Part shown: one piece after another, positions 17,420-60,820 of the stretch
Layout of the letters: each line of letters opens with the position of its first letter
Position numbering within the stretch: position 1 is the first letter of the stretch
Source of the DNA: a virus
Lineage: Duplodnaviria > Caudoviricetes
DNA: 64,000 bases
Direction: 5' to 3' (one strand)
IMG/VR virus record: IMGVR_UViG_3300032038_000061
Span: 7,259 to 71,258 of that record
Notes under the pieces: model-generated
What the model was told of the DNA's origin: nothing
Database searches by the model: none
What the model saw: the letters and a program-made list of their open reading frames with translations, nothing else
Program-made: the position numbers and the translations under genes

Positions 17420-17431
17420 ACATATATAATT
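17420..17431 (+). promoter_or_regulatory. Candidate phage promoter motif ACATATATAATT
   Basis: Identical 12-mer at 29304 and 50244, each upstream of a + strand operon and followed by a short hairpin. Confidence 0.5.
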
Positions 17432-17493
17432 AATATGAGAATGGTACAACTTTGTACTTTTCTAAATTTGATTGCTCAAAGGAGGAAAATAAT

Positions 17494-53267: not shown

Positions 53268-56200
53268 TTATTCGGAATCTGTACGTCTGTTAACATTTAC
53301 GATTATTGGTACTCTGAGGATGAGACCACGGAATGTAACGTTGACGTAGCAAACTACGATTTCACCACCGTCTGTTGGATTAATATCTCTTCTGAACGTT
53401 ATATCCAGAGCTTGTACTAGATTACCAACCCAACCAGCAAACATGTTATCACATTCATCCTTTAATGTTGCGAGTACGCCATCATCATAATATTCAAGGA
53501 GATATGAATCAATCTTATTCTGAAGGAGGAATACTAACTGAGAAAGTGTTCTCATATTATTCTCCTGAATGAGATCGGATGTATCACCCTCTCTATACAA
53601 TGTACGTTGAGACTTACGTTGGAGGTTTCCATTTATATCCATAACCCAAGCGTTACCACCTGAATTATATAACAATTCTCTCATCTCCCAATCGGTTGTA
53701 TCGATATCTGGGAAGAATGAAATATATTCGGATGGACCAATATTAGTATATTTTCCAGTGAAAGGTTTGTTAACAGAGTATTGTTTCATATGTGTAAACA
53801 TATTGTCAACAAGTCTTTTTGTGTATGTATAAGAGATTCCATCAGAACCAACGAAACCACCAATATCCCATGAAGCATTCGGGTTAGAGAATCTCTTAGC
53901 GAATGATTGGTTAATATTAAGGGCTGTTGCTGCATCTGTAATACCTGAGTCAAGATGTAATGATAATCCAGAACCAGGTCCGATAGGACGTTTATCTTCA
54001 GGAATTCCTTGATATACTCTGTATTCCATTAAGTCATACATTGCTTGTTTAACGTCAATATCAATAAATCCATCGGAAAGATTCTTGATGAGAGATTCAT
54101 CAAGAAGAACGGCTTCTTTTTCATCTTCATCATACATAGTTGACATATTGATCATTTCTGTTACAGTATAACTCATATAAGGAAGAATGGTTGGACCAAT
54201 GATTGTATTAAATCCACCATCAAAGAGATATTTAGCAGGTACTCTTGTTGGTGACATGATACGAGGATCTATTTCACCTTTGAATGCCTTAACGAGAAGC
54301 TCTGAATACATCCATTTGAATTCAATATCAGAAATATTTTCATCAAAGAATCCAGTATAACCATTTTCCATAGGAATACCACCGAGTTCTGATCTTGGGT
54401 TAATGCCATAAGATTCAGTGTTATAATAGTTATTAGGAATATTAAGCTTATCTTCAGTAATATAGTAAAGTGATCCCATAGTACCCTTGATAGAATATCT
54501 GTGAATAGATTTGGGATCTTCAGTATCTTTTTCTTTTTCAATACTTAATACATATACTTTGAATGGAGCATCCGTGGTTGTATCAGTTTTACTCTTAGGA
54601 GTATATGCAAAATTGAACTTTGTGATATTTTCATCAGTAAGTGTTACTTCTGCAACAGTATCAGTTGATTCAAAATCATTTGATGAATGAACATCATTGG
54701 TTATCTTATTATCAGTTACAGTAACAAAGTAAAGTCCTTCAGAAACAGTATCAATTAAACTGTGAAGATCCACAAGAGCCTCTTTTCTTTCATACCAAGT
54801 ATTTGTATTCCATTCATCACCAGTAACACCAGCTACATATGTTTCACCACTCTTCTTGTAGTATTGAGTAGGATCAAATGGAGATGGTTCTGTCTCTAGA
54901 GGTCCATCATATGTGTATGTCATAGTATCACTGCACTTAATGTATACCTTTTTATCAACAACAAAATTTTCATTAATTTGTTCATCAAGTTCTGAAATAA
55001 CAACAGAAACTTCAGTAACTTTATCATTCTCGATTTTATCAACATTTATTTCAGTTTTATTGTTTATGAGGAATCTAGCATTGGGTGATAGACTATTGGC
55101 ATTGTTATTATCAGGGTCAACAATAACTCGTGTTACTTTGGCACCGTCCTTATATTCTTTTTCTTTTTCAAATACGTCAAAGGCAAGACCAACATTATCC
55201 TGAACTGTTACGGATGAAGGCACTCTCGAAGATATGAATATTGTAGAAGGAATTTCATATCTGTAGTTAACATCAGTTGAAACCTCTTCAGTTACATCAT
55301 GTTTGTTTACATATACCTTACCACTACCTTCTGGATAATCCGTGCTTGATGCTTTAACAGGTGATTCAGTAAATTCACCATTGACGTCAATTATTGTAGC
55401 ACCAGCTCTACTCCAAGCCGTCTGAGTAGGTGTCTTTGCAAGCAAACTCATATTAGATGATGGGAATACGAGTCTTGCTCTTATATCATTATTATCGTTA
55501 AATATTCTTGTCTTTTCAGTATCACACTTGTAAGTTGATCCTTCCAATTTGTAATGAACTTCAACAAGATAGCATGTTGATGTAGAACCGAATCTAGATT
55601 CATCAACAGCAATGATATAATCATAATCAGATTCACTTGTTGGAACAAGTTTTGTCAACTTGGCAATTGTTACATCGATTTGATTATAAATGGCATTTTT
55701 AATTTTGTCTTCATCTGTAGAACCTGTAGCATTTGACGTATCAAATGTAATTACACAAGTAATTGTTGATTCTTCATCCTTAAATTCATTACTAGATTCA
55801 GAAGCCTTAACTCTCTTTCGTGCTTTATTGAGAGTAATTGTAGAAATAGCTCCTGTGTATTGGTTAATACCAGAAACCATTGCGATTGTAGGAGTTGTTC
55901 TATTAGTGAGGTAAAGATCACCAATATGTGTAACAACGGAATCATCAGGGTTTTCTTCAGTAATACCCTTGTAGAATGATTCGACACGTTCATAGAGTTT
56001 TGAAGGAACGGTATTGTCAAAATCATCTGAAGTTGTATTGATACGATATTCTTCAGTGAGACGAGGAATATCCATATCAAACATATCAACTTGGTAATAC
56101 GGTAACTGAATATCTCCGTCACCAGTATAAATATATCTACCAAAGATAGGATCAAAGGTATTAACTGTCAATGTTTTGTAGATAGTCTGTTGATACTTTG

Positions 56201-57107
56201 TTTCTTCGGTGAGTGTTGCATAAACATTGTTAACACAATCATCGAAGTTTTTCATATAATCTTTATAGAGTTCTTGTACAGCAGATTCATTCAATGTAGG
56301 AATAAGTACATCACTACCATCAACACGTCTGTTGACTACCGTATTTACAGTATCAATTGTATTTGTATACAGACCGTTATTGATGTTTATCAATGATGCA
56401 GTAAACTGCTCAACTACATTATTTGTTCTGGTATCAATTGTTGAGAAAAGATATGCAACGTTTGCAGGTCTCTTTCCCTGTGTAATAGGATTGATACACC
56501 AATTGAAATTGTTATATACAGAACCTCTACCAGCTGAAATGTATGTCATGAATACTCTCTGTTTCCAACCGGTTTTTCCTTCAACAGTCATGTTATCATC
56601 AGAAAATTCGGTTACGAGTTTTGCATTAAGACGAGCTGGATTTTTAAAACGTGCAAGAGTTACTCCATCAGGAAGACCATTATTCGAATAAACATCGGAA
56701 GACTGTTTGAAACGAACATGAATCTTTTTATCGTCAGCATCCCATCTCCATTGAACAAGTATGCAAGAAAATGCATATGTTGCGTCATCTGGAGTTACAC
56801 GCATGAACTTGATTGGTACATTCTGTGAAAGAAGACTTGGTCCATATGTTACAGATTGACCATATTTCTTAATATCATCGGATGAAATATAGTTCATTCC
56901 AAAAGCAACGTTGAGTACATCACTTCTGGTAATACTTACGATCTTATTATCAACACCCATGGGACAACCTGTGACAACAATTGTAGCATATAATGAAGGA
57001 TCAACAGCTGTTGTTACACCAAGCTCTCCAGCATACATTGAATTATCAACAATATGCACAACACTATGAGGCATAGAATATTTTAATCCATATTTTGAAT
57101 CAAGCAT
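53268..57107 (-). CDS. Contractile tail sheath protein with a large internal insertion (1279 aa)
   Basis: Sheath-like C-terminus (LQENNMRTL..LV...QNKIDSYLLEY...EIVVCYVNVTFRGLILRVPIIVNV); KYLFDGGF; precedes the tube gene. Confidence 0.8.
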   Translation of the reverse strand: MLDSKYGLKYSMPHSVVHIVDNSMYAGELGVTTAVDPSLYATIVVTGCPMGVDNKIVSITRSDVLNVAFGMNYISSDDIKKYGQSVTYGPSLLSQNVPIKFMRVTPDDATYAFSCILVQWRWDADDKKIHVRFKQSSDVYSNNGLPDGVTLARFKNPARLNAKLVTEFSDDNMTVEGKTGWKQRVFMTYISAGRGSVYNNFNWCINPITQGKRPANVAYLFSTIDTRTNNVVEQFTASLININNGLYTNTIDTVNTVVNRRVDGSDVLIPTLNESAVQELYKDYMKNFDDCVNNVYATLTEETKYQQTIYKTLTVNTFDPIFGRYIYTGDGDIQLPYYQVDMFDMDIPRLTEEYRINTTSDDFDNTVPSKLYERVESFYKGITEENPDDSVVTHIGDLYLTNRTTPTIAMVSGINQYTGAISTITLNKARKRVKASESSNEFKDEESTITCVITFDTSNATGSTDEDKIKNAIYNQIDVTIAKLTKLVPTSESDYDYIIAVDESRFGSTSTCYLVEVHYKLEGSTYKCDTEKTRIFNDNNDIRARLVFPSSNMSLLAKTPTQTAWSRAGATIIDVNGEFTESPVKASSTDYPEGSGKVYVNKHDVTEEVSTDVNYRYEIPSTIFISSRVPSSVTVQDNVGLAFDVFEKEKEYKDGAKVTRVIVDPDNNNANSLSPNARFLINNKTEINVDKIENDKVTEVSVVISELDEQINENFVVDKKVYIKCSDTMTYTYDGPLETEPSPFDPTQYYKKSGETYVAGVTGDEWNTNTWYERKEALVDLHSLIDTVSEGLYFVTVTDNKITNDVHSSNDFESTDTVAEVTLTDENITKFNFAYTPKSKTDTTTDAPFKVYVLSIEKEKDTEDPKSIHRYSIKGTMGSLYYITEDKLNIPNNYYNTESYGINPRSELGGIPMENGYTGFFDENISDIEFKWMYSELLVKAFKGEIDPRIMSPTRVPAKYLFDGGFNTIIGPTILPYMSYTVTEMINMSTMYDEDEKEAVLLDESLIKNLSDGFIDIDVKQAMYDLMEYRVYQGIPEDKRPIGPGSGLSLHLDSGITDAATALNINQSFAKRFSNPNASWDIGGFVGSDGISYTYTKRLVDNMFTHMKQYSVNKPFTGKYTNIGPSEYISFFPDIDTTDWEMRELLYNSGGNAWVMDINGNLQRKSQRTLYREGDTSDLIQENNMRTLSQLVFLLQNKIDSYLLEYYDDGVLATLKDECDNMFAGWVGNLVQALDITFRRDINPTDGGEIVVCYVNVTFRGLILRVPIIVNVNRRTDSE

Positions 57108-57233
57108 GATATTCTCTCCTTTTCTATTTTAATTTACAATTGAAGGGAATGAAAACATGAGGAATCGCGATTCATGTATGAATTCCCGCAATTATTTTTG
57201 TGTTGAATAAAGTATATTGTTGGGAGAAAAGAA

Positions 57234-57265
57234 AAAAAATAAGTCATCTACATGACTTATTTTTT
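57234..57265 (-). terminator. Terminator AAAAAATAAGTCAT-CTAC-ATGACTTATTTTTT
   Basis: Hairpin with A/T tracts on both sides. Confidence 0.75.
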
Positions 57266-57284
57266 CCATTATTATTTTTTAAAG

Positions 57285-57543
57285 TATCACATTGGAATCA
57301 TCCCCCTCCTACTCCTTTAATGCCGGGAGTACGACACCGATTTGCTGTCGGAGATACATATGGTCAAGCCAAGGGCTTTCAATACCATAATTAGGTAGCT
57401 CGCAACACTACCATTTCCATTGTAATGAGAACCCAATACCCCAATACTACGAATATTTCATAACTCATTTGGTTATGATTGATATTGGTATCATTACGGA
57501 CACGCGTGAATATTTAACGTCTCTTACGCTAAGACACATCGAC
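57285..57543 (-). ncRNA. Candidate multi-stem structured RNA (about 260-270 nt)
   Basis: GC-richer than its surroundings; nested stems GTAATGA/TCATTAC, CATAAC/GTTATG, GGTAG/CTACC, TATGGT/ACCATA, CCGA/TCGG, ACTCC/GGAGT, TGGAA/TTCCA; G-U pairs favour the - strand. Confidence 0.55.
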
Positions 57544-57545
57544 CA

Positions 57546-57968
57546 TTATAGATTATAATAGTCGATTAACTTTTTACAGTTCAATCGTGAACTTTTTGTA
57601 TTTTTATCCCAGCGACATTTTCTACCTGTACCGACATTTTGTTTTATCATTTCATCAGCCTTTCTTTTCGGAGAATGAAATGATATTTGAATCCTTTCGG
57701 ATTCAATTTTTGTTTCAAAATATGTTATATATGAAGGATAACCGTTTTGATCCGGTTTTTCTTCTATATAATAATTGAAAATTGTCTTATTCTTTCGAAT
57801 AAAATATAAAGCTTTAGATATATAAATATCTTTAACTTTATATTTTCCCCTTTCAGAGAATGATTGTTTGGTGTTATTGAATTTCAATTCGTAAATACCT
57901 TTTCCTGCATCAGATGCTATTTGAGCATTGCAGATAAGTTCAGATATCTTTTTATTGATATCTTTCAT
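57546..57968 (-). CDS. Small basic hypothetical protein (140 aa)
   Basis: AAAGGAG SD before ATG 57968; K/R-rich; QISFHSP motif. Confidence 0.75.
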   Translation of the reverse strand: MKDINKKISELICNAQIASDAGKGIYELKFNNTKQSFSERGKYKVKDIYISKALYFIRKNKTIFNYYIEEKPDQNGYPSYITYFETKIESERIQISFHSPKRKADEMIKQNVGTGRKCRWDKNTKSSRLNCKKLIDYYNL

Positions 57969-57995
57969 TTGGATCACTCCTTTAAATTTTATTTA

Positions 57996-58099
57996 ATAAG
58001 AGAGAAGATAAATTGTTATGTCGGGAGGATTATACCGATCATCCAGTTAGAGTTATCCATGAGATCACCGCTTTTCTGAATGGATTTCTTCTCTCTTAT
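57996..58099 (-). promoter_or_regulatory. Structured 5' leader closed by a 13-bp stem
   Basis: ATAAGAGAGAAGA / TCTTCTCTCTTAT inverted repeat just downstream of the promoter motif GTATATATTATT (58117-58106). Confidence 0.55.
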
Positions 58100-58182
58100 C
58101 ATATTAATAATATATACATAGAAAATCAAAATAATAGGAATTAAGGGTATAATACCAATGGTAGCATAGTAAAATAGCGTTA

Positions 58183-58208
58183 TATTCCGGGGCATATGCC
58201 CCGGAATA
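58183..58208 (-). terminator. Perfect palindrome TATTCCGGGGCATATGCCCCGGAATA
   Basis: Downstream of the 58216..59148 gene. Confidence 0.75.
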
Positions 58209-58215
58209 CATTACG

Positions 58216-59148
58216 TTATTTGAATTTTATCTCATATTCAACCATTCTGTCATCAATGGCTTTGCCACTGCTTCTATCGATTGACGTAATTCTTGAATCA
58301 GGTTTTGGATAATCAGGAACCATGTTGCCATCAGAATCATATGCAACATAATCAATGTCATCATCAGTATCACCTAATAAGACATATTGTCTGACACCCA
58401 TACGTTCATACTGAAGTTGTTGATTGGAAGATGTTGGTATTATATCATCCAACATACGTGCAGCATCATAAGAATCAGTATTGACATAATTCATATTAAG
58501 GTAGTTATTGGGATTATCAGCAGGAGCATCGAATATATTATCCAATACAGATCTTCCAATATCATTTACATTATAACTACTTCTACTACCAACATTAGTA
58601 CCACCACTAGAATCTTTTGCAATTGATTGTTGTTGTTTCAATCGAATATCCGCAATATTCTTTTTGATGTTTACCTGTTCTTTATTGATGTTAGTAATAG
58701 CAGATCTAGCAGCCGTTAAAGCTTGCATAGCTTCAACATCACTCTCATTCAAACCAAATTTACCCTTATCAGTTAAACTCTCCATAAGTCGTTTTTCAAA
58801 CAACTTGGTTATTTTCTGTTGGTCTGATGCTAATGCTCGTAAAGCAGTGATATCAGAGGAAAAAATACGATTGGGATCAATCTTAGTTTCTAATGCAGGA
58901 AATCTGCTTTGATCAGAAATATTCTGAAGTATGGGACTTATACTACCCCAGTTATTTGAAGCATATGGTGATATGTATCCATCCATATTATATAAAGCAG
59001 GAGTAGATTTAAAACTTTGAAATTCTGATTCAAAAACAGAACCATTCTGAGGATATTCAACATATGTTGGTTCGTATGTTGATGAATTGGGATTTTCCTC
59101 GGTCGGAAAAGTATTACCCATTGTAGTAAACATGTCTATGAAGTTCAT
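58216..59148 (-). CDS. Hypothetical protein (310 aa) with a central coiled coil
   Basis: ORF with AAAGGAG/GGAG SD. Confidence 0.75.
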   Translation of the reverse strand: MNFIDMFTTMGNTFPTEENPNSSTYEPTYVEYPQNGSVFESEFQSFKSTPALYNMDGYISPYASNNWGSISPILQNISDQSRFPALETKIDPNRIFSSDITALRALASDQQKITKLFEKRLMESLTDKGKFGLNESDVEAMQALTAARSAITNINKEQVNIKKNIADIRLKQQQSIAKDSSGGTNVGSRSSYNVNDIGRSVLDNIFDAPADNPNNYLNMNYVNTDSYDAARMLDDIIPTSSNQQLQYERMGVRQYVLLGDTDDDIDYVAYDSDGNMVPDYPKPDSRITSIDRSSGKAIDDRMVEYEIKFK

Positions 59149-59308: not shown

Positions 59309-60820
59309 TTAAGATTCTTTTTGTTTAGTAAGAGCATATAATCCATTAAGACATTCTATTTTAACCTCATATACAGTATCACAACTTGGTTTGATATTGT
59401 ATATCTTAGAATACATTAATTCTTCCGCACGTTTATTAGCCTCATCAGACCATATACCAATACTCTTTACGGTATCACCATCATAGTCACCACCAATAGC
59501 AACGAGTCTACTGTTTGAAGGAGTAATTACATCAACAAATGATGTTGAAACACGTCCATGTGGTAAATCAGGATCTATGTTTGGATAAGTATTATAGGTT
59601 TCTCCATTGAATTCAATCTTAACAGTATCGACAGTTGATAATATATGTACTTTTGTAAAGAAAGCACCTAAGTAAGTACCAATAGGATATCGAACAGTAT
59701 AAACCATTCTATCAGATCTTATGATGGCATCATAGCAGCATAAATAAATTGCATCAGTTAATGTCAATGGACGTGTCTTAGTTTCATTCTTTGTTAAATC
59801 CAAATATTCCATCATAATAGGAAGGGTGTTTTCTGGGTCAAGATATAGTTTTCTAAAACGAGAACCTGGGTTATTTAGAAATATATCAATTAAATCTTCA
59901 ATCATTTTATTATCATAAATATTCGAAATATTATTTGATTTAACTTCACTTGGATTATTATGAATATTTTGAATATTTGAAAATGATAAGAATTGTTGCA
60001 TGTAATACTTGACAAATGGTTTGAACATTGCAACACAAGAGATCAATGGATATCCTGTACGATAGATTCCTATATTGGGAGTATCTGTGTTATAACGTGG
60101 GGCTGATATAACGTTTCTTACAGTAAACATAGTTGTTTTTGCAAGTAGATGTTTTTGAAAGAACCCATTCTTTGAACCAACATAATCATGAATGTAAGTA
60201 TATATATTCATAACAGCATCTTGGAATTTTGCATAAACCTGATAAACATTTGATGTTGTATGAGCTGTTACACTCTTCAATCCTAAGATATGCATATACA
60301 AGGAATTCAATTCATTCTTAACCTGTTTACCATTTCTAACACCAACAGGACGGAATTCAGGTGGTAATACTAATACTTTATCATTGAATATTAATCTCTT
60401 TGGAGATTTAGTTAAGATATCTATATTCTGTGATGTACGAGTATTGAGAGTCTTCCTTATATCAATCTGCTCCCATATATCATATAAGTCTTTTAAACCA
60501 CAATACTTACCTTCTTTATCAGCAACCAGGACACCATCAACAATATTACATTTAGTCTCTCCATAAGCCATCTTACGTATAATACCGCCTGAACGTGAAA
60601 TTATTGTTTTCGCAACATCAGGATTGAAAACATGTACAGGTAGTTTTATATAACCACATCTGTATTTTCTTTCTTCAGTTGTCTGACCAAATATCTCTTC
60701 AGAAAAAAGACCTTGTGAATTAAACAAGTTTTGTGCTCTGTAGATCTGTTGAGATGTTACTTCTTTCAAATCGTTTGTTTTTATAAAACGATCAATATCA
60801 AATAATTCAATAACTTTCAT
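59309..60820 (-). CDS. rpoC: Phage multisubunit RNA polymerase beta' subunit, N-terminal part with the catalytic motif
   Basis: GLFSEEIFG, VLPPEFRP, KNGFFQKHLLAKTTMFTVRNVIS, VRYP, GGDYDGD (NADFDGD equivalent). Confidence 0.9.
   Translation of the reverse strand: MKVIELFDIDRFIKTNDLKEVTSQQIYRAQNLFNSQGLFSEEIFGQTTEERKYRCGYIKLPVHVFNPDVAKTIISRSGGIIRKMAYGETKCNIVDGVLVADKEGKYCGLKDLYDIWEQIDIRKTLNTRTSQNIDILTKSPKRLIFNDKVLVLPPEFRPVGVRNGKQVKNELNSLYMHILGLKSVTAHTTSNVYQVYAKFQDAVMNIYTYIHDYVGSKNGFFQKHLLAKTTMFTVRNVISAPRYNTDTPNIGIYRTGYPLISCVAMFKPFVKYYMQQFLSFSNIQNIHNNPSEVKSNNISNIYDNKMIEDLIDIFLNNPGSRFRKLYLDPENTLPIMMEYLDLTKNETKTRPLTLTDAIYLCCYDAIIRSDRMVYTVRYPIGTYLGAFFTKVHILSTVDTVKIEFNGETYNTYPNIDPDLPHGRVSTSFVDVITPSNSRLVAIGGDYDGDTVKSIGIWSDEANKRAEELMYSKIYNIKPSCDTVYEVKIECLNGLYALTKQKES

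Follow-up and report, generated by a model that had tools for sequence, protein, structure and literature searches.

Pistol, twister, twister-sister and hammerhead ribozymes, all of them self-cleaving, are common in phage DNA. The exonuclease roadblock formed by the coremin element has, to our knowledge, been described only in RNA viruses of eukaryotes, and we know of no Xrn1 in bacteria. Coremin (GUCCGAAGACGUUAAACUAC) is an Xrn1-resistant, ribosome-stalling RNA of plant viruses; as coremin/xrRNA-C it is found in plant and fungal RNA viruses, among them BNYVV (in RNA3) and the cucumoviruses (PMC6546385, PMC10520033). It is laid out as a first hairpin, hp1, with a GUC/GAC stem and a YGAD loop, a GUUAAAC spacer and a second hairpin, and longer hp1 loops such as the GRV octaloop are tolerated (PMC6546385, PMC10520033). 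Its defining features are an hp1 stem of 3–5 bp, a YGAD or YGNNAD loop, and a (G)UUAAACUAC spacer in which A15–A17 are essential (PMC6546385). Where a 3′ non-coding region opens with coremin, mRNA decay is converted into the production of a stable non-coding RNA, which in BNYVV is ncRNA3 (PMC6546385, PMC10520033).

The locus described here lies in a stretch of 64,000 nucleotides (64 kb; hereafter, the window) of a 71-kb IMG/VR virus record whose completeness is estimated at 26%. The window belongs to an AT-rich jumbo phage that encodes a split multisubunit RNA polymerase (phrog_2986, E 4e-62). In order along the minus strand, the unit comprises a promoter motif, a leader, a 140-aa ORF, about 280 ORF-free bases that we call the tail, and a terminator (Table 1). 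All of the parts listed in a sequence-only reading of the same DNA proved to be present on that strand, at or near the positions claimed, and its description of the unit as self-contained is borne out by the two terminators that enclose it: that of the upstream gene, which forms the 5′ boundary, and the unit's own. The best reading that we can offer, tentative as a whole, is of a phage transcription unit that is complete and ordinary except at its 3′ end, which is unusual. The 1279-aa ORF downstream, which had been taken for a tail sheath, has no Pfam match and matches weakly a PHROG of unknown function. Among GenBank phages we found neither DNA nor protein similar to the unit. ARAGORN found no tmRNA in the window and there was no Rfam or Pfam match, so the unit does not qualify as an SmpB–tmRNA pair.

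Table 1. Features of the unit (positions in the window) and ribozyme matches in related loci (distances in nt past the stop codon of the gene).
Feature	Position	Strand	Basis and remarks
Intrinsic terminator of upstream 310-aa gene	58181..58210	−	13-bp stem with 7 G-C pairs, T run
Putative phage promoter, motif GTATATATTATTAATATGATA	58097..58117	−	recurrence of the motif
5′-proximal leader hairpin, 104 nt	57996..58099	−	fold; 15 closing pairs, 58099-58085 with 58010-57996
Shine-Dalgarno AAAGGAG, 8 nt ahead of ATG	57977..57983	−	sequence; agrees in style with the other RBSs of the window
ORF for 140-aa basic protein of an unnamed family	57546..57968	−	ORF and homologs; invariant motifs AQIASDAGKG, YF, Q-x-SFH and W
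ORF-free tail	57545-57266	−	no sense-strand ORF
Coremin/pistol-like H-type pseudoknot	57504..57535	−	GUC..GAC-GUUAAA core; ACGC-loop pairing
Tail middle, GC-enriched hairpins	57310..57503	−	folds; no Rfam match; alignable to relatives in short blocks alone
Start-stop minigene	57287..57309	−	RBS-like GGAGGGGGAUGAUUCCA, then AUG (57292-57290) and UGA (57289-57287)
Intrinsic terminator	57232..57265	−	fold; 14-bp AU-rich stem (57265-57252/57247-57234), GUAG loop, U run
L158 ribozymes: pistol, hammerhead III, second pistol	pistol +42, hammerhead III +244	gene's strand	Rfam
L013 ribozymes: pistol, twister-P5	pistol +227	gene's strand	Rfam
L005 ribozyme: twister-P1		gene's strand	Rfam, just below gathering score
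L018 ribozymes: twister-sister, HDV-like, twister-P1		gene's strand	Rfam
L038 ribozymes: two twister-P5		gene's strand	Rfam

The promoter motif is not peculiar to this gene. At up to 3 mismatches its 20-mer, TATATATTATTAATATGATA (58116-58097), has 3 sites in the window, this one included, where 0.24 would be expected, and the 14-mer core has 22 (8.8 expected); close copies also lie upstream of the homolog in the related locus L001 and upstream of the tail RNA in L030. The leader is likewise real: the stem that closes it runs to 15 consecutive base pairs rather than the 13 first counted, and the whole folds at −31.5 kcal/mol (z −4.4), a value that none of 200 shuffles equaled or bettered. It does not, however, appear to be the special part of the unit that it had been taken for. 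At 17421(+) and 42512(−) the promoter motif is again followed by a 5′ hairpin, shorter than this one, and then by an RBS and a gene, and because of this recurrence at two other genes we consider the combination of promoter and leader generic in the window's phage; the L001 homolog has the same promoter motif, but its leader is short and unstructured. We therefore read the closed-stem leader as an extended form of what other promoters of this class also have; most simply, it would be a 5′ stabilizer. In L030 the motif is found behind the gene's own terminator and ahead of the tail, and this terminator–promoter pair, judged from the sequence, makes the tail a separate transcription unit driven by the promoter motif.

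The K/R-rich ORF is a real gene. Its product has a pI of 9.6 (29 K+R versus 16 D+E), and a word-indexed search returned 28 close homologs. A profile search covering 1.84 billion representatives expanded the family to 499 clusters at E ≤0.001, 430 of them at E ≤1e-10, with nearly all members between 130 and 160 aa in length and most of them basic (median pI 9.5; pI >9 for 88%). Fourteen positions are invariant or nearly so (Q16, S19, D20, G22, K23, Y43, K46, Y83, F84, Q94, S96, F97, H98 and W120), and the AlphaFold (AF2) model, with a pLDDT of 91, places three strands between two sets of helices. As had been supposed from the sequence, the family is not a recognized one: the protein has no match in Pfam, PHROGs or the PDB sequence profile, its model found no match by Foldseek (PDB, BFVD) or VIA-align (best Z 4.4), and these fold searches revealed no recognizable RNA-binding fold. 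The family is also missing from 185,579 species-representative genomes. A search aimed at longer, fused forms of the family found none, and such forms are rare: P0043 carries an NT5C-like domain, and P0039 residues 1–130 of ribosomal protein S2, the latter being probably an assembly chimera (1.4-kb contig, 2.3x coverage). HEPN (R-x5-H), P-loop, HUH and T-loop motifs, the core of a hammerhead and a boxA/boxB nut site were all considered by eye, and rejected as misfits to the predicted secondary structure or to the conservation pattern.

What most of the relatives have in common with the window is what follows the gene. In every core lineage that we fetched, 270–1280 nt without a credible ORF lie 3′ of it; these lineages number about 18, have different neighboring genes, and include jumbo phages, an assembly of a huge phage (241 kb) and contigs that encode ParA/ParB and an integrase. 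In all 18 lineages out of 18, the folding energy of the tail beats that of its dinucleotide shuffles (mean z −3.9). Tails are missing only in the most distant subfamily (L036, L037, L039 and L165). Thus the flanking RNA that had been proposed as a check on the unit, a helix-rich, ORF-free tail of at least 270 nt, is present in nearly all relatives. Rfam found 11 self-cleaving ribozyme matches in the family's loci, most of them in tails and all 11 on the gene's strand (Table 1); seven reach the gathering score, and four fall just below it (the twister-P1 matches in L005 and L018, the hammerhead in L158 and the HDV-like match in L018). The L013 site at +227 had first been taken for a hairpin before Rfam identified it as a pistol ribozyme. 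In several lineages the tail contains ribozymes of the pistol, twister or hammerhead class or else knots like that of coremin, and no single RNA element is common to all tails.

The tail in the window is richer in GC (39.8%) than either the window (32.9%) or the gene (27.2%). Folded without its terminator, it gives z values of −1.7 to −2.1 versus shuffles on the sense strand, whereas the antisense strand does better (−3.0), and for this reason thermodynamics lends modest support to the "multi-stem structured RNA" of the sequence-only reading: the stretch is ORF-free and GC-enriched as described, but its folding z is weak (−1.7; −2.1). Rfam reported nothing meaningful on 56500-59000 at E ≤10, nothing on the whole window at E ≤0.01, and, in the tail itself, no ribozyme, including pistol (RF02679), at E ≤10 locally. 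The tail has no tandem repeats, 57150-58250 holds a single 8-nt, two-copy repeat, and the region has no iterons. When we aligned the tail to those of its relatives by blastn, nhmmer, MAFFT and a 12-mer scan, only the GACGUUAAA and UUCCAAUG blocks were recovered, and we could align no structure that this tail shares with the others. Among the three alignable relatives (L001, L011 and L023) there are 5 compensatory pairs, a number reached by 6 of 500 shuffles, which is modest covariation support for a multi-helix fold.

The second of the two recovered blocks marks a start-stop element near the end of the tail. The UUCCAAUG core is present in 6 loci (the window, L001, L011, L023, L030 and L032), is followed in each by 0–2 codons and a stop, and is conserved among related jumbo phages whose proteins are 42–54% identical. 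More generally, strong RBSs inside the tails precede ORFs of 1–40 codons, versus mostly 71–146 codons for those elsewhere in the loci. Lambda bar minigenes and bacterial start-stop elements have a strong SD, an AUG, 0–2 codons and a stop; the element in the window, which we liken to them by analogy, differs in its place, since it closes a non-coding tail and is followed at once by a terminator. That terminator, which had been placed at 57234-57265, is confirmed by both fold and sequence, with eight consecutive U that extend into the 3′ arm of the stem, as expected for an intrinsic terminator; the consensus terminator scanner missed the hairpin because it has too few G-C pairs.

At the other end of the tail, starting 11 nt past the stop codon, is a predicted pseudoknot that closely resembles coremin. 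Its first stem (S1) pairs GUC (57535-57533) with GAC (57521-57519), and at 3 bp falls within the range of the coremin hp1 stem. The 11-nt loop, UUAGCGUAAGA, contains GCGU, the spacer is GUUAAAUAUUC, and ACGC (57507-57504) can pair with the GCGU of the loop, although 4 bp taken alone are not above chance. The core GUC..GACGUUAAA is identical to that of coremin, as is the layout, in which a 3-bp GUC/GAC hp1 is followed directly by GUUAAA, and, like coremin, the knot stands at the head of a 3′ non-coding region. Right after GAC the window has GUUAAAU, which keeps the AAA and differs in the 3′ part of the spacer. The hp1 loop, in contrast, departs from the YGAD tetraloop, having 11 nt in the window and 8 nt in the form usual among phages, and the bases past the spacer can pair back into that loop rather than forming a separate hp2. 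The host differs as well, the window coming from a dsDNA phage of bacteria. Pistol (RF02679) also begins with a P1 hairpin, an 8-nt pseudoknotted loop and an A-rich linker (AUAAA or UUAAA), but the window's knot has neither the P2/P3 arm nor the G-U cleavage site, and does not match the Rfam model. By sequence, then, the conserved core of the knot is that of the coremin xrRNA and, equally, the P1/linker part of pistol.

The window's copy is a divergent one, with its 11-nt loop (8 nt being common) and a pseudoknot helix of 4 bp, and we place it with the others by its exact core and its homologous position. GUC..GAC-GUUAAA occurs at a single site on the two strands of the 64-kb window. Knots follow the stop codon at +15 in L001, at +9 in L011 and L023, and at both +8 (with a GAG/CUC stem) and +46 (GUC/GAC) in L012. 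The exact core GACGUUAAA lies 3′ of the gene, on its strand, in 6 independent lineages; in five jumbo-phage genomes this exact 9-mer shows no genome-wide enrichment, and the exact or near-exact copies that we traced in those genomes adjoin the family gene. A covariance model, R1, did not report the window's site at E ≤10, but this model is narrow, having fixed loop lengths and being built from 6 family-locus copies, and it missed L011, L012, L013 and L019 too. A loose knot detector did no better than chance, with 4 sites in the window versus 5.5 in shuffled sequence. Many lineages have, 3′ of the gene, what looks like a hairpin whose stem covaries and whose loop is (A)UGACGUUAAA(C). The phage element shares with coremin the core GUC..GAC-GUUAAAC, but its 8-nt hp1 loop pairs with the bases that follow the spacer, so that the stem of this hairpin is the second helix of an H-type pseudoknot. 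Compensatory changes are seen in 5 of the 7 pairs of the knot helix in the in-register subset, with a score of 0.68 versus 0.34 for shuffles (reached by 1 of 500); a stem test with free loop lengths is not significant by itself, whereas the in-register subset and the set of 126 phage copies described next are.

Outside the family's loci, a stricter form of the motif, GTCCTG-N3-4-ATGACGTTAAA, matches at least 117 IMG/VR contigs. Among the matches listed, many contigs have several same-strand intergenic copies, and none encodes the protein family. One of these contigs, the phage L101, encodes a DNA polymerase I together with an SSB. In 126 distinct phage copies, stems of at least 5 bp form in 74%, versus 36% after permuting the partners, and 89 of the 572 knot pairs are G-U, so that the pairing fits an RNA read from the sense strand. 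No Rfam family covers the phage knot element, and our literature search found no paper linking coremin to phages. The common form, a 26–27-nt pseudoknot GUCCUG-N3-4-AUGACGUUAAAC-N5-6, shares with the window's copy the GUC..GAC-GUUAAA core, the pairing of the loop with downstream bases, and the sense orientation a few bases past a stop codon. The window's copy differs in its longer loop and spacer, its 4 knot pairs and its lack of the CUG..AU loop ends, and it is single in 64 kb where many phages carry several. Because the knot is so widespread without the protein, we do not take it as evidence of a specific protein partner; the idea that the GACGUUAAA hairpin is a protein-specific binding site was dropped on these grounds.

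Our preferred explanation of the whole, which we put forward with some reserve, is of an ordinary unit whose message ends in a knot-capped, terminator-ended and decay-resistant 3′ RNA. To judge from coremin, the tail most likely resists decay, derives from the 3′ end of the message and outlives it. The pseudoknot would block 5′-to-3′ decay by an RNase J-type enzyme, trailing ribosomes, or both, and as the mRNA is turned over a stable RNA of ∼270–300 nt would remain, capped 5′ by the knot and 3′ by the terminator hairpin. The start-stop RBS would probably load ribosomes onto this 3′ RNA, either for stabilization or for titration. The basic protein, finally, probably acts on processed RNAs or on their ends, a role suggested by the family-wide occurrence of ORF-free tails built of knots and self-cleaving ribozymes. 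The likeness would be to bacterial 3′-UTR-derived small RNAs and to flavivirus sfRNA, in that a stable non-coding RNA bounded by its own terminator would arise from the 3′ end of an mRNA. The bacterial 3′-UTR-derived small RNAs known to us come from RNase E cleavage or internal promoters, not from an exonuclease roadblock, which is the origin that the analogy proposes here. The case for linking protein and tail is built on their synteny, the charge of the protein and the recurrence of ribozymes and knots behind the gene in the sequences compared; it is weakened by the fact that the conserved RNA elements are generic in phages and none is common to all tails.

The sequence-only reading had gone further and seen in the unit a small ribonucleoprotein system or an RNA-antitoxin module. 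The self-contained unit, the unrecognized family and the synteny of the tail stand in its favor; the special leader, the dedicated partner RNA and the type III antitoxin found no support. The ribonucleoprotein form of this idea holds that the 140-aa protein binds the adjoining tail RNA, for example at the knot or in the UUCCAAUG region, and that the particle is the functional product. We regard this as possible but rather unlikely. It would fit the synteny of gene and ORF-free tail in nearly all core lineages, the basic character of the family, the traced knot cores of the five jumbo phages, which adjoin the gene without being enriched elsewhere, and the L030 arrangement, in which the tail is a separate transcription unit and still sits beside the gene. 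It is at odds with the lack of any RNA element found in every tail, with the tailless distant subfamily and with a protein that has no recognizable RNA-binding fold. The conserved RNA elements of the tails are generic phage signals rather than a dedicated partner: coremin-like knots are found in at least 117 phage contigs without the protein, and the remaining elements are known ribozymes, likewise common in phages that lack it.

Unlikely, too, in our estimation is the opposite possibility, that protein and tail have no functional link, the tail being an insulating spacer or 3′ UTR of generic RNA punctuation and the protein having a job unrelated to RNA. Its appeal is that promoter, 5′ hairpin and knot alike are generic elements, that the tail sequence is unconserved past close relatives, and that the window's tail folds with a weak z. 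It does not explain why such long tails recur after the gene in ∼18 lineages with differing neighbors, why the UUCCAAUG start-stop is kept while the proteins are as divergent as noted above, or why every one of the ribozyme matches is on the gene's strand. More doubtful again is the most ambitious version of a link, in which the family would be a protein partner of phage RNA-end biology that recognizes or modifies the ends of ribozymes and knots, and forms a ribonucleoprotein with the knot-capped, ribosome-loading tail.

A type III toxin–antitoxin module and DNA-level elements are both unlikely, and we give each very little weight. For the former, in which the protein would be an RNase toxin and the tail its RNA antitoxin, one can point to a small basic protein beside a non-coding RNA, to invariant S, D, K, Y, Q and H residues that could make an active site, and to the toxins Zeta and HipA as neighbors in L008. 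The unit is, however, not ToxIN-like, because tandem repeats are absent from the tail. The gene also comes first and the RNA second, 3′ of the gene instead of upstream behind a terminator; no ToxN-like or other toxin family or fold was matched (no Z ≥5, though absence of a match leaves the fold possible); and the species-representative genomes lack the family altogether. Least probable of all is that the ORF-free stretch is an origin, packaging or recombination site served by the protein, for although a small basic protein does adjoin a non-coding region, with ParA/ParB and an integrase nearby in L002, the helices use G-U pairs that are functional on the sense strand alone, relatives have ribozymes, elements that act at the RNA level, in the corresponding places, and the tail ends at a terminator and has no iterons.

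The new part of this locus is the protein family and its tail: one uncharacterized family repeatedly precedes tails made of ribozymes and coremin-like knots. If the knot does stop a bacterial 5′-to-3′ RNase, phages would make stable 3′ RNAs as plant viruses and flaviviruses do, and the family would be a concrete candidate for a protein acting together with RNAs that ribozymes have processed. Should the more doubtful reading, of a partner in RNA-end biology, prove true, the family would be a first point of entry, from the protein side, to the reason for which ribozymes and knots are found in phages.

The promoter motif TATATATTATTAATATGA, which precedes the leader hairpin of the gene for the 140-aa basic protein, recurs at two other sites in the window, each time followed by a short 5′ hairpin, a ribosome-binding site and a gene. 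These sites form a putative promoter class of the window's phage, with the 5′ stem-loop built in. The 503-aa ORF, which contains a GGDYDGD motif and matches phrog_2986 (E 4e-62), a phage RNA polymerase beta-subunit family, belongs to a split multisubunit RNA polymerase of the jumbo-phage type. The sequence-only reading had labeled the 1279-aa ORF a tail sheath; a Pfam search gave no match, and the sole PHROG match was weak and to a PHROG of unknown function.

Location of the features discussed (window or contig coordinates)
Feature	Location	Strand
Promoter motif copy	window 17421-17480	+
Promoter motif copy	window 42512-42440	-
1279-aa ORF	window 53268-57107	-
503-aa ORF	window 59309-60820	-
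AGGAGGUGAU-loop hairpin	L018:2947-2975	
AGGAGGUGAU-loop hairpin	L019:2905-2940	
AGGAGGUGAU-loop hairpin	L176:3425-3465	
OTKONC RNA	L176:13083-13248	
Tandem array	L026:3350-3900	
Tandem array	L027:3380-3920	
P0039 (S2 fusion)	L040:401-1108	
Knot motif copies, example contig	L101:2653, 4227, 5388, 7931, 8433	
Pistol ribozyme (RF02679)	L013:3138-3201	
Pistol ribozyme (RF02679)	L158:1487-1547	

Other lineages carry different elements 3′ of the family gene, the homologue of that encoding the 140-aa protein. In three of them (L018, L019 and L176), a hairpin lies within ~10-20 nt downstream of the stop codon, and its loop exposes AGGAGGUGAU, which is complementary over its full length to the 3′ end of 16S rRNA. 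An AUG within or adjoining the 3′ arm opens ORFs of 3, 15 and 26 codons. L176, a 13.6-kb viral contig, also harbors an OTKONC RNA (RF03053; 152.8 bits, exceeding the gathering score) along with its family member. In L026 and L027, the terminator of the tail, the ORF-free, helix-rich RNA stretch downstream of the gene, is followed by an AT-rich tandem array of ~75-90-nt units (TTTTATATA..ATATAATAAGGGCGAAATTTTTT), each of which may be an iteron or one copy of a repeated promoter.

Two family members are fused to other sequences. In P0043 (707 aa), the family domain (residues 7-141) is followed by a long C-terminal extension terminating in an NT5C-type 5′-nucleotidase domain (E 9e-10). In P0039, the N-terminal ~130 residues of ribosomal protein S2 are joined in frame exactly at the family member's N-terminus; this is probably a chimera, since its contig is 1.4 kb at 2.3x coverage. 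The pairing with S2 is nevertheless intriguing, given the very strong anti-SD-complementary sequences in the tails.

The knot is a coremin-like H-type pseudoknot with no entry in Rfam 15; its pattern, GTCCTG-N3-4-ATGACGTTAAA, was matched by at least 117 contigs of IMG/VR (L041-L157). Among the matches listed, it lies directly 3′ of stop codons or terminators and ~25-40 nt upstream of the next ATG, and the genes downstream often lack a Shine-Dalgarno sequence. The knot and the pistol ribozyme (RF02679) have a 5′ module in common: a GUC/GAC-type P1, a pseudoknot-forming 8-nt loop and then a U/A-rich AAA linker. The phage knot looks like pistol minus the P2/P3 cleavage arm, a resemblance that may reflect shared ancestry or a shared fold.
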